Sequence record: MZ375256.1
Origin: Escherichia phage T7
Reading direction: 5' to 3' (one strand)
DNA length: 37,111 nt
Program-made: the position numbers and the translations under genes
Notes under the pieces: model-generated
The model's input: the letters and a program-made list of their open reading frames with translations, nothing else
Databases searched by the model: none
What the model was told of the DNA's origin: nothing
In this document: one piece after another, positions 7,428 through 37,111 of the stretch
Numbering within the stretch: position 1 is the stretch's first letter
How the letters are laid out: each line of letters starts with the position of its first letter

Positions 7428-8009
7428 TGGGACTGTTAGATGGTGAAGCCTGGGAAAAAGAAAACCCGCCAGTACAAGCAACTGGGTGTATAGCTTGCTT
7501 AGAGAAAGATGACCGTTATCCACACACCTGTAACAAAGGAGCTAACGATATGACCGAACGTGAACAAGAGATGATCATTAAGTTGATAGACAATAATGAA
7601 GGTCGCCCAGATGATTTGAATGGCTGCGGTATTCTCTGCTCCAATGTCCCTTGCCACCTCTGCCCCGCAAATAACGATCAAAAGATAACCTTAGGTGAAA
7701 TCCGAGCGATGGACCCACGTAAACCACATCTGAATAAACCTGAGGTAACTCCTACAGATGACCAGCCTTCCGCTGAGACAATCGAAGGTGTCACTAAGCC
7801 TTCCCACTACATGCTGTTTGACGACATTGAGGCTATCGAAGTGATTGCTCGTTCAATGACCGTTGAGCAGTTCAAGGGATACTGCTTCGGTAACATCTTA
7901 AAGTACAGACTACGTGCTGGTAAGAAGTCAGAGTTAGCGTACTTAGAGAAAGACCTAGCGAAAGCAGACTTCTATAAAGAACTCTTTGAGAAACATAAGG
8001 ATAAATGTT

Positions 8010-10422: not shown

Positions 10423-12234
<1,812 letters not shown>

Positions 12235-12302: not shown

Positions 12303-14417
12303 ATGATCGTTTCTGACATCGAAGCTAACGCCCTCTTAGAGAGCGTCACTAAGTTCCACTGCGGGGTTATCTACGACTACTCCACCGCTGAGTACGTAAG
12401 CTACCGTCCGAGTGACTTCGGTGCGTATCTGGATGCGCTGGAAGCCGAGGTTGCACGAGGCGGTCTTATTGTGTTCCACAACGGTCACAAGTATGACGTT
12501 CCTGCATTGACCAAACTGGCAAAGTTGCAATTGAACCGAGAGTTCCACCTTCCTCGTGAGAACTGTATTGACACCCTTGTGTTGTCACGTTTGATTCATT
12601 TCAACCTCAAGGACACCGATATGGGTCTTCTGCGTTCCGGCAAGTTGCCCGGAAAACGCTTTGGGTCTCACGCTTTGGAGGCGTGGGGTTATCGCTTAGG
12701 CGAGATGAAGGGTGAATACAAAGACGACTTTAAGCGTATGCTTGAAGAGCAGGGTGAAGAATACGTTGACGGAATGGAGTGGTGGAACTTCAACGAAGAG
12801 ATGATGGACTATAACGTTCAGGACGTTGTGGTAACTAAAGCTCTCCTTGAGAAGCTACTCTCTGACAAACATTACTTCCCTCCTGAGATTGACTTTACGG
12901 ACGTAGGATACACTACGTTCTGGTCAGAATCCCTTGAGGCCGTTGACATTGAACATCGTGCTGCATGGCTGCTCGCTAAACAAGAGCGCAACGGGTTCCC
13001 GTTTGACACAAAAGCAATCGAAGAGTTGTACGTAGAGTTAGCTGCTCGCCGCTCTGAGTTGCTCCGTAAATTGACCGAAACGTTCGGCTCGTGGTATCAG
13101 CCTAAAGGTGGCACTGAGATGTTCTGCCATCCGCGAACAGGTAAGCCACTACCTAAATACCCTCGCATTAAGACACCTAAAGTTGGTGGTATCTTTAAGA
13201 AGCCTAAGAACAAGGCACAGCGAGAAGGCCGTGAGCCTTGCGAACTTGATACCCGCGAGTACGTTGCTGGTGCTCCTTACACCCCAGTTGAACATGTTGT
13301 GTTTAACCCTTCGTCTCGTGACCACATTCAGAAGAAACTCCAAGAGGCTGGGTGGGTCCCGACCAAGTACACCGATAAGGGTGCTCCTGTGGTGGACGAT
13401 GAGGTACTCGAAGGAGTACGTGTAGATGACCCTGAGAAGCAAGCCGCTATCGACCTCATTAAAGAGTACTTGATGATTCAGAAGCGAATCGGACAGTCTG
13501 CTGAGGGAGACACAGCATGGCTTCGTTATGTTGCTGAGGATGGTAAGATTCATGGTTCTGTTAACCCTAATGGAGCAGTTACGGGTCGTGCGACCCATGC
13601 GTTCCCAAACCTTGCGCAAATTCCGGGTGTACGTTCTCCTTATGGAGAGCAGTGTCGCGCTGCTTTTGGCGCTGAGCACCATTTGGATGGGATAACTGGT
13701 AAGCCTTGGGTTCAGGCTGGCATCGACGCATCCGGTCTTGAGCTACGCTGCTTGGCTCACTTCATGGCTCGCTTTGATAACGGCGAGTACGCTCACGAGA
13801 TTCTTAACGGCGACATCCACACTAAGAACCAGATAGCTGCTGAACTACCTACCCGAGATAACGCTAAGACGTTCATCTATGGGTTCCTCTATGGTGCTGG
13901 TGATGAGAAGATTGGACAGATTGTTGGTGCTGGTAAAGAGCGCGGTAAGGAACTCAAGAAGAAATTCCTTGAGAACACCCCCGCGATTGCAGCACTCCGC
14001 GAGTCTATCCAACAGACACTTGTCGAGTCCTCTCAATGGGTAGCTGGTGAGCAACAAGTCAAGTGGAAACGCCGCTGGATTAAAGGTCTGGATGGTCGTA
14101 AGGTACACGTTCGTAGTCCTCACGCTGCCTTGAATACCCTACTGCAATCTGCTGGTGCTCTCATCTGCAAACTGTGGATTATCAAGACCGAAGAGATGCT
14201 CGTAGAGAAAGGCTTGAAGCATGGCTGGGATGGGGACTTTGCGTACATGGCATGGGTACATGATGAAATCCAAGTAGGCTGCCGTACCGAAGAGATTGCT
14301 CAGGTGGTCATTGAGACCGCACAAGAAGCGATGCGCTGGGTTGGAGACCACTGGAACTTCCGGTGTCTTCTGGATACCGAAGGTAAGATGGGTCCTAATT
14401 GGGCGATTTGCCACTGA
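12303..14417 (+). CDS. 5: DNA polymerase
   Basis: 704-aa ORF, family A polymerase with 3'-5' exonuclease domain. Confidence 0.98.
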
Positions 14418-16475: not shown

Positions 16476-16742
16476 ATGTGTTTCTCACCGAAAATTAAAA
16501 CTCCGAAGATGGATACCAATCAGATTCGAGCCGTTGAGCCAGCGCCTCTGACCCAAGAAGTGTCAAGCGTGGAGTTCGGTGGGTCTTCTGATGAGACGGA
16601 TACCGAGGGCACCGAAGTGTCTGGACGCAAAGGCCTCAAGGTCGAACGTGATGATTCCGTAGCGAAGTCTAAAGCCAGCGGCAATGGCTCCGCTCGTATG
16701 AAATCTTCCATCCGTAAGTCCGCATTTGGAGGTAAGAAGTGA
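16476..16742 (+). CDS. 6.7: Gp6.7 virion protein
   Basis: 88-aa ORF from MCFSPKIKTPK. Confidence 0.85.
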   Translation: MCFSPKIKTPKMDTNQIRAVEPAPLTQEVSSVEFGGSSDETDTEGTEVSGRKGLKVERDDSVAKSKASGNGSARMKSSIRKSAFGGKK

Positions 16743-17143
16743 TGTCTGAGTTCACATGTGTGGAGGCTAAGAGTCGCTTCCGTGCAATCCGGTGGACTGT
16801 GGAACACCTTGGGTTGCCTAAAGGATTCGAAGGACACTTTGTGGGCTACAGCCTCTACGTAGACGAAGTGATGGACATGTCTGGTTGCCGTGAAGAGTAC
16901 ATTCTGGACTCTACCGGAAAACATGTAGCGTACTTCGCGTGGTGCGTAAGCTGTGACATTCACCACAAAGGAGACATTCTGGATGTAACGTCCGTTGTCA
17001 TTAATCCTGAGGCAGACTCTAAGGGCTTACAGCGATTCCTAGCGAAACGCTTTAAGTACCTTGCGGAACTCCACGATTGCGATTGGGTGTCTCGTTGTAA
17101 GCATGAAGGCGAGACAATGCGTGTATACTTTAAGGAGGTATAA
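16742..17143 (+). CDS. 7: Gp7 virion/host-range protein
   Basis: 133-aa ORF. Confidence 0.85.
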   Translation: MSEFTCVEAKSRFRAIRWTVEHLGLPKGFEGHFVGYSLYVDEVMDMSGCREEYILDSTGKHVAYFAWCVSCDIHHKGDILDVTSVVINPEADSKGLQRFLAKRFKYLAELHDCDWVSRCKHEGETMRVYFKEV

Positions 17144-20498: not shown

Positions 20499-20521
20499 TA
20501 ATACGACTCACTATATGGAGA
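20499..20521 (+). promoter_or_regulatory. T7 promoter phi10 with non-consensus +1 (T instead of G)
   Basis: taatacgactcactataTggaga followed by the gene 10 leader accacaacggtttccctctagaaataattttgtttaactttaagaaggagatatacat. Confidence 0.85.
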
Positions 20522-33897: not shown

Positions 33898-33955
33898 TTG
33901 GTAAATCACAAGGAAAGACGTGTAGTCCACGGATGGACTCTCAAGGAGGTACAAG

Positions 33956-34159
33956 GTGCTATCATTAGACTTTAACAACGAATTGATTAAGGCTGCTCCA
34001 ATTGTTGGGACGGGTGTAGCAGATGTTAGTGCTCGACTGTTCTTTGGGTTAAGCCTTAACGAATGGTTCTACGTTGCTGCTATCGCCTACACAGTGGTTC
34101 AGATTGGTGCCAAGGTAGTCGATAAGATGATTGACTGGAAGAAAGCCAATAAGGAGTGA
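33956..34159 (+). CDS. 17.5: Holin
   Basis: 67-aa ORF with one hydrophobic transmembrane segment and charged C-terminus. Confidence 0.9.
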   Translation: MLSLDFNNELIKAAPIVGTGVADVSARLFFGLSLNEWFYVAAIAYTVVQIGAKVVDKMIDWKKANKE

Positions 34160-34475: not shown

Positions 34476-34528
34476 ATTGTCTATACGAGATGCTCCTACG
34501 TGAAATCTGAAAGTTAACGGGAGGCATT

Positions 34529-34786
34529 ATGCTAGAATTTTTACGTAAGCTAATCCCTTGGGTTCTCGCTGGGATGCTATTCGGGTTAGGATGGCATCTA
34601 GGGTCAGACTCAATGGACGCTAAATGGAAACAGGAGGTACACAATGAGTACGTTAAGAGAGTTGAGCCCAGAAGGGTGACGCATGGATTCGTGCGTTACA
34701 GGATACTATTCGTGAACTGCAACGTAAGTAGGAAATCAAGTAAGGAGGCAATGTGTCTACTCAATCCAATCGTAATGCGCTCGTAG
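34529..34786 (+). pseudogene. 18.5: Truncated and frameshifted i-spanin gene 18.5 (Rz-like); embedded o-spanin gene 18.7 (Rz1-like) reduced to an 11-codon stub at 34644-34679
   Basis: First 46 codons MLEFLRKLIPWVLAGMLFGLGWHLGSDSMDAKWKQEVHNEYVKRVE match gp18.5, then an out-of-frame tail PRRVTHGFVRYRILF... running into gene 19; about 229 bp missing relative to the canonical 143-aa gene. Confidence 0.75.
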
Positions 34787-36513
34787 TGGCGCAACTGAAA
34801 GGAGACTTCGTGGCGTTCCTATTCGTCTTATGGAAGGCGCTAACCCTACCGGTGCCCACTAAGTGTCAGATTGACATGGCTAAGGTGCTGGCGAATGGAG
34901 ACAACAAGAAGTTCATCTTACAGGCTTTCCGTGGTATCGGTAAGTCGTTCATCACATGTGCGTTCGTTGTGTGGTCCTTATGGAGAGACCCTCAGTTGAA
35001 GATACTTATCGTATCAGCCTCTAAGGAGCGTGCAGACGCTAACTCCATCTTTATTAAGAACATCATTGACCTGCTGCCATTCCTATCTGAGTTAAAGCCA
35101 AGACCCGGACAGCGTGACTCGGTAATCAGCTTTGATGTAGGCCCAGCCAATCCTGACCACTCTCCTAGTGTGAAATCAGTAGGTATCACTGGTCAGTTAA
35201 CTGGTAGCCGTGCTGACATTATCATTGCGGATGACGTTGAGATTCCGTCTAACAGCGCAACTATGGGTGCCCGTGAGAAGCTATGGACTCTGGTTCAGGA
35301 GTTCGCTGCGTTACTTAAACCGCTGCCTTCCTCTCGCGTTATCTACCTTGGTACACCTCAGACAGAGATGACTCTCTATAAGGAACTTGAGGATAACCGT
35401 GGGTACACAACCATTATCTGGCCTGCTCTGTACCCAAGGACACGTGAAGAGAACCTCTATTACTCACAGCGTCTTGCTCCTATGTTACGCGCTGAGTACG
35501 ATGAGAACCCTGAGGCACTTGCTGGGACTCCAACAGACCCAGTGCGCTTTGACCGTGATGACCTGCGCGAGCGTGAGTTGGAATACGGTAAGGCTGGCTT
35601 TACGCTACAGTTCATGCTTAACCCTAACCTTAGTGATGCCGAGAAGTACCCGCTGAGGCTTCGTGACGCTATCGTAGCGGCCTTAGACTTAGAGAAGGCC
35701 CCAATGCATTACCAGTGGCTTCCGAACCGTCAGAACATCATTGAGGACCTTCCTAACGTTGGCCTTAAGGGTGATGACCTGCATACGTACCACGATTGTT
35801 CCAACAACTCAGGTCAGTACCAACAGAAGATTCTGGTCATTGACCCTAGTGGTCGCGGTAAGGACGAAACAGGTTACGCTGTGCTGTACACACTGAACGG
35901 TTACATCTACCTTATGGAAGCTGGAGGTTTCCGTGATGGCTACTCCGATAAGACCCTTGAGTTACTCGCTAAGAAGGCAAAGCAATGGGGAGTCCAGACG
36001 GTTGTCTACGAGAGTAACTTCGGTGACGGTATGTTCGGTAAGGTATTCAGTCCTATCCTTCTTAAACACCACAACTGTGCGATGGAAGAGATTCGTGCCC
36101 GTGGTATGAAAGAGATGCGTATTTGCGATACCCTTGAGCCAGTCATGCAGACTCACCGCCTTGTAATTCGTGATGAGGTCATTAGGGCCGACTACCAGTC
36201 CGCTCGTGACGTAGACGGTAAGCATGACGTTAAGTACTCGTTGTTCTACCAGATGACCCGTATCACTCGTGAGAAAGGCGCTCTGGCTCATGATGACCGA
36301 TTGGATGCCCTTGCGTTAGGCATTGAGTATCTCCGTGAGTCCATGCAGTTGGATTCCGTTAAGGTCGAGGGTGAAGTACTTGCTGACTTCCTTGAGGAAC
36401 ACATGATGCGTCCTACGGTTGCTGCTACGCATATCATTGAGATGTCTGTGGGAGGAGTTGATGTGTACTCTGAGGACGATGAGGGTTACGGTACGTCTTT
36501 CATTGAGTGGTGA
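34753..36513 (+). CDS. 19: Terminase large subunit (DNA maturase B)
   Basis: 586-aa ORF with Walker A-like GIGKS. Confidence 0.95.
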
Positions 36514-36971: not shown

Positions 36972-37111
36972 TCTCACAGTGTACGGACCTAAAGTTCCCC
37001 ATAGGGGTACCTAAAGCCCAGCCAATCACCTAAAGTCAACCTTCGGTTGACCTTGAGGGTTCCCTAAGGGTTTGTCTTTGGGTGTTACCTTGAGTGTCTC
37101 TCTGTGTCCCT
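36972..37111. repeat. Right direct terminal repeat (identical to 1-140)
   Basis: Exact 140-nt match to the window start. Confidence 0.95.

Follow-up and report, generated by a model that had tools for sequence, protein, structure and literature searches.

Genes 18.5 and 18.7 of the T7 genome analysed here, the equivalents of lambda Rz and Rz1, now constitute a null allele of a two-component spanin. A spanin is a protein pair that breaks the host outer membrane at lysis. In the window (i.e., the whole 37,111-bp stretch of DNA that was analysed, Escherichia phage T7 record MZ375256.1), one 229-bp deletion truncates both reading frames, and the locus now falls outside the spanin families since the periplasmic and lipoprotein features that define them were tested for and are absent. 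The window is a member of the CiPGr series of engineered, genome-reduced T7 mutants. As a CRISPR/Cas9-engineered clone of that series, it very probably owes the 229-bp gap to a designed deletion of 18.7.

A sequence-only reading of this region had proposed that both spanin genes were inactivated by the loss of about 229 bp, the extent of which was to be fixed by alignment to a reference. We aligned the whole window with wild-type T7 (V01146, 39,937 bp), which revealed that T7 positions 37055-37283 are missing. Pairwise alignment of window positions 34500-34800 with V01146 yielded one gap of 229 columns, with GAGTTGAG before it and CCCAGAAGG after it, all other columns being 100% identical. T7 records matched at 99.9% by a 1.4-kb query around the site always aligned in two pieces, with a span 229 bp longer in the record. 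Being a deterministic difference from the reference, the deletion raises no question of chance. The missing 229 bp and the gp18.7 and gp18.5(47-143) peptides had no match elsewhere in the window, apart from an out-of-frame 3' remnant of 18.5 at 34669-34728. Likewise, neither an intact 18.5 ORF of approximately 143 codons nor an embedded ORF of approximately 83 codons is present among the ORFs of the window. The remaining features of the locus and its neighbour are as follows.

34529..34666, + strand: 5' part of gene 18.5, codons 1-46, identical to V01146 36917-37054
34529..34786, + strand: chimeric 85-codon ORF, gp18.5 residues 1-46 followed by 39 frameshifted residues, stopping 31 nt inside gene 19
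34644..34679, + strand: gene 18.7 stub, MSTLRELSPEG plus stop, read against the wild-type gp18.7 translation
34667..34731, + strand: 3' end of gene 18.5, 65 nt corresponding to wild-type codons 123-143 plus the TAG stop, out of frame and lacking a start codon of its own
34753..36513, + strand: gene 19, terminase large subunit, intact, carrying N31T, its ribosome-binding site now overlapped by the chimeric ORF

Codons 1-46 of 18.5 encode the N-terminal transmembrane anchor plus about 25 residues on the periplasmic side, and are preceded by the gene's own Shine-Dalgarno sequence (GGAGG, 34520-34524). BLASTP confirmed that residues 1-46 of the chimeric ORF, LIPWVLAGMLFGLGW included, are identical to gp18.5 and that identity stops at residue 46, precisely as expected from the earlier description of 46 canonical codons containing a transmembrane-like segment. 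The 39 unrelated codons said to follow the frameshift and run into gene 19 proved equally exact. The type II (N-in/C-out) anchor of the i-spanin is therefore kept in the chimeric ORF. The periplasmic alpha-helical/coiled-coil part and the C-terminal region contacting the o-spanin are absent, residues 47-122 being deleted and residues 123-143 out of frame; tblastn located gp18.5 residues 124-143 at 34669-34728, in a frame separate from that of the 5' part. While wild-type gp18.5 matches the Rz-like spanin family phrog_1327 end to end and PF03245 (Rz lysis protein) over residues 34-118, the chimeric ORF matches phrog_1327 over residues 1-50 only, and a search of its 85 residues against Pfam matched no family. 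Its frameshifted 39-residue tail is strongly cationic (8 K/R versus 1 D/E), and an exact-product look-up of the 85-residue protein in public assemblies found no gene on record. In annotation, this ORF should not carry a spanin name.

Gene 18.7 has fared no better. Its ATG at 34644, 6 nt after a GGAGG, still lies in the +1 frame within the ORF at 34529-34786, and the frame now ends at a stop codon at 34677-34679, so that the 11-residue stub is exactly the one first read from the letters. The signal peptide, the lipobox (ISGC, with the acylated cysteine) and the whole mature lipoprotein of the o-spanin were encoded in the deleted DNA. Wild-type gp18.7 matches phrog_4306 as well as PF17531 (O_Spanin_T7), the latter over residues 25-83, a stretch that lies wholly within the deletion. 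Neither of the two overlapping ORFs now encodes a spanin: with 18.7 nested in 18.5 in the +1 frame, a single deletion is enough to abolish both subunits. The deletion itself is confirmed, all statements of the sequence-only reading about the letters hold, and its interpretation of the scar as spanin inactivation is supported.

The chimeric ORF reads through the Shine-Dalgarno sequence and the GTG start codon of gene 19. Thermodynamic folding with four context lengths gave a mean unpaired probability over positions -18 to +12 of the gene 19 ribosome-binding site of 0.46-0.52 in the mutant versus 0.41-0.53 in the wild type. A structural polar effect on gene 19 was dropped because this predicted accessibility does not change consistently. 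Ribosomes translating the chimeric ORF could possibly interfere at the gene 19 start. Within gene 19 itself, the N31T substitution maps to window position 34844 (T7 37461 A>C), 178 nt downstream of the spanin deletion and 6 nt from a CGG PAM. No further record of the phage collection has this allele, nor does the closest sibling clone described below; the substitution is possibly a Cas9-escape mutation, a compensation or a sequencing error.

The spanin deletion does not stand alone. Whole-genome alignment revealed seven internal deletions in the window relative to V01146, for each of which microhomology was taken as the distance that the deletion can slide without altering the product.

Genes 0.4-0.6: T7 1341-1903, 563 bp, window junction 1320/1321, microhomology 1 bp
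Gene 1.4, exactly its CDS: T7 7608-7763, 156 bp, window junction 7024/7025, microhomology 0 bp
Gene 3.8: T7 11254-11545, 292 bp, window junction 10514/10515, microhomology 0 bp
Genes 4.3-4.7: T7 13271-14289, 1019 bp, window junction 12239/12240, microhomology 7 bp
Gene 5.3, beginning at its ATG: T7 16483-16820, 338 bp, window junction 14432/14433, microhomology 0 bp
Genes 18.5/18.7: T7 37055-37283, 229 bp, window junction 34666/34667, microhomology 0 bp
Gene 19.5, most of the gene: T7 39420-39608, 189 bp, window junction 36802/36803, microhomology 9 bp

Several of these deletions recur in other records. The 40-mer spanning the 1.4 junction was found at 100% identity in 63 records and that spanning the 5.3 junction in 46, in both cases exclusively in T7 entries of the MZ3752xx and OL9647xx series. 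The title of one entry, MZ375280, reads "Mutant Escherichia phage T7 clone T7_240S". This clone has the six other deletions in common with the window, its 18.5/18.7 region being intact. The CiPGr study of Yuan, Shi, Jiang and Ma (Nucleic Acids Res 2022, PMC9825161), from which these records stem, describes an iterative reduction of the T7 genome by CRISPR/Cas9 over 300 transfers, in which Cas9 was combined with homologous recombination templates of 50 x 2 bp, each designed to remove either 100 bp or a whole gene (PMC9825161). Both gp18.5 and gp18.7 are listed there among the genes deleted or disrupted in the mutant populations, and large deletions of gp0.3-0.6, gp4.3-4.7 and gp19.5 are reported as undesigned (PMC9825161).

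The 229-bp gap would then be a designed "cassette-gene" deletion of 18.7, introduced through a donor with two 50-bp homology arms while Cas9 would counter-select undeleted phage. The edges of the junction bear on this proposal. The junction is blunt: its left edge falls directly after codon 46 of 18.5, at a codon boundary, and its right edge sits on the final base of the stop codon of 18.7. Several base pairs of microhomology, the mark of spontaneous deletion between short direct repeats, are absent at this site (0 bp), and the deletions of 1.4, 3.8 and 5.3 are blunt in the same way. The 7 and 9 bp at 4.3-4.7 and 19.5 fit this distinction, because both deletions are called undesigned in the CiPGr paper (PMC9825161). 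All 18 SpCas9 PAM sites within the 229 bp are gone. Against a design, the first 23 nt of 18.7, ATG included, are still in place, and consequently the "entire gene" as annotated in V01146 was not removed. Furthermore, the 40-mer across the 18.5/18.7 junction had no match among 50,697 phage records; since the junction occurs in no record of this collection, the design is without confirmation from a second independent clone. On balance, we infer with considerable confidence that this junction came about by design and not as an undesigned escape deletion.

Such an escape deletion, in which a Cas9 cut in 18.7 would have selected a viable product of illegitimate recombination or end joining without any donor, is the most serious competitor, albeit an unlikely one. 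It draws on the acknowledged presence of undesigned deletions (gp0.3-0.6, gp4.3-4.7, gp19.5) in the same lineage, on a left edge located away from any boundary of 18.7 and on the uniqueness of the junction in the phage collection. Yet it fits poorly with 0 bp of microhomology in a genome where the 4.3-4.7 and 19.5 deletions display 7 and 9 bp, with a right edge set on the exact last base of the 18.7 stop codon and a left edge set on an 18.5 codon boundary, and with other blunt deletions (1.4, 5.3) that are identical in dozens of clones, as designed edits should be. Far less probable is an artefact of assembly or sequencing concealing a real phage with intact spanin genes. While the records of the series do differ at scattered bases and in their terminal repeats, in part in a noise-like manner, the junction is clean with 100% identity on either side, a 229-bp gap ending at a stop codon would be an atypical assembler error in a non-repetitive region, no repeat of the segment exists in the window, and deletion or disruption of gp18.5/gp18.7 is itself reported for the mutant populations (PMC9825161). 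Finally, although some phages of Gram-negative bacteria naturally lack spanins and use other outer-membrane disruptors (bioRxiv 10.1101/515445), a natural T7-like phage reflecting natural variation in gene content has a negligible probability: the window is about 99.7-99.98% identical to T7 in every long aligned block, exact deletion junctions are shared with records titled as laboratory mutants, every natural relative among the matches listed for an 81-bp junction search (T3, phiA1122, Yersinia phages, Bas phages) aligns in two pieces spanning approximately 310 bp and is annotated there with 18.5/18.7-type spanin genes, and hence carries the full segment, and a 30-mer across the junction had no match in IMG/VR or in JGI metagenomes. 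The scar is most likely neither spontaneous nor natural and represents a deletion made by design through Cas9 and homologous recombination.

Besides its deletions, the window differs from V01146 by approximately 25 substitutions and by minor changes in each copy of the terminal repeat. Identity of the long aligned blocks is about 99.7-99.98%, falling to 98.0% in the first 1.35 kb, where the variant terminal repeat is located. The two repeat copies (1-140 and 36972-37111) diverge from V01146 in the same manner, through a 2-bp deletion, three substitutions and an 18-bp deletion of one GGGTT.. unit. T7_240S differs again at several bases of the repeat, and consequently some of this variation may be noise from end sequencing. 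Two substitutions common to the window and T7_240S affect promoter +1 positions. At 20516 (T7 22904 G>T), the phi10 promoter now reads TAATACGACTCACTATATGGAGA and has lost the initiating G ahead of the capsid gene; at 385 (T7 405 A>G), the phiOL promoter now reads ...CACTATAGGGAGA, which is nearer the consensus. Among the 15 substitutions checked in coding regions, 14 change an amino acid on their own, the exception being 10072 A>T, which adjoins 10071 T>G in the same codon of gene 2.8. The coding changes cluster in tail, fibre and internal-core genes, and include R806C and G809S in gene 16 (30622 and 30631), K214E in gene 17 (32875), A153E in gene 11 (22297), T468A in gene 12 (23855) and Q184R in gene 1 (3138); gp16 G809S is found in the window and not in T7_240S. 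This pattern suggests adaptation over more than 200 transfers on MG1655/Cas9 hosts, or errors in the reference, rather than neutral drift.

The other two lysis genes of the clone have been spared.

33956..34159, + strand: gene 17.5, class II holin, PF10746 (E = 7.5e-38), no difference from V01146
9967..10422, + strand: gene 3.5, amidase/lysozyme, no difference from V01146 10706-11161, with a lysozyme at the same coordinates in MZ375280

Both are thus identical to wild type, in agreement with the initial statement that holin and amidase are intact. Upstream of the holin gene, T7_240S lacks 13 bp (junction 33923/33924) that correspond to window positions 33924-33936 and are kept in the window and in wild type; in MZ375280, the CDS annotated as "type II holin" is longer and begins at 33898.

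The i-spanin has lost its whole periplasmic coiled-coil and C-terminal domain but keeps its membrane anchor, and the o-spanin has lost signal peptide, lipobox and mature part alike. The clone therefore lacks, at the genetic level, the third step of lysis, namely disruption of the outer membrane by a complex spanning the periplasm once holin and amidase have acted. According to the current view, lysis fails absolutely in spanin nulls, except where the spherical cells are broken by shear. In phage lambda, Rz/Rz1 carry out the last step of Gram-negative lysis, and knockout of either subunit leads to fragile spherical cells bounded by the outer membrane, which shear breaks in shaken flasks except when the outer membrane is stabilised by divalent cations at millimolar concentration (PMC6139136). 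With holin and amidase intact and functional spanin subunits absent, behaviour like that of the lambda nulls is expected. By analogy, infected cells of this clone would turn into fragile outer-membrane-bounded spheres that break by shear when shaken and persist under millimolar Mg2+, so that lysis in shaken culture is expected to be blocked by Mg2+. We found no T7-specific data on lysis or phenotype of an 18.5/18.7 null in the searchable literature. The phage was isolated and sequenced and is consequently viable without spanins. That some other factor replaces the spanin (and 19.5) in disrupting the outer membrane appears very improbable. The inner-membrane-anchored 85-residue product, whose cationic tail loosely resembles "disruptin" peptides, may be one candidate, and the clone-specific substitutions gp19 N31T and gp16 G809S may be another. 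Dispensability of spanins through shear in shaken cultures and plaque handling is a simpler reading than a replacement factor.

The spanin deletion is an artificial knockout of a lysis function that is well understood, in a strain from a published genome-reduction screen in which gp18.5 and gp18.7 are already listed as removable. Its value as a discovery is small, and its practical value lies in annotation. Being genetically both spanin-null and 19.5-null, the clone nevertheless offers a convenient background in which to measure the dependence of T7 lysis on spanins.

Compared with wild-type T7, the 18.5/18.7 locus of the window retains the same promoter-proximal context, the Shine-Dalgarno sequences, the two start codons and 46 codons at the start of 18.5 (7 of 18.7), but lacks the 229 bp, by which the PF17531 domain and the PF03245 region (residues 34-118) are largely or wholly removed. 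Among CiPGr clones, the closest sibling is T7_240S (MZ375280), in which the deletions of 0.4-0.6, 1.4, 3.8, 4.3-4.7, 5.3 and 19.5 are identical and which also shares the blunt type of junction and many substitutions, including those at the +1 positions of phi10 and phiOL; it differs in having neither the 229-bp deletion of 18.5/18.7 nor gp19 N31T and gp16 G809S, all of which are found in the window. Lambda Rz/Rz1 nulls belong to another phage, whereas in T7 the endolysin is an amidase with a second role as regulator of T7 RNA polymerase, and the window clone is further deprived of 19.5, for which a part in lysis has been proposed (PMC8365609). In both systems, the embedded spanin subunits are lost together while the holin and the endolysin remain intact.
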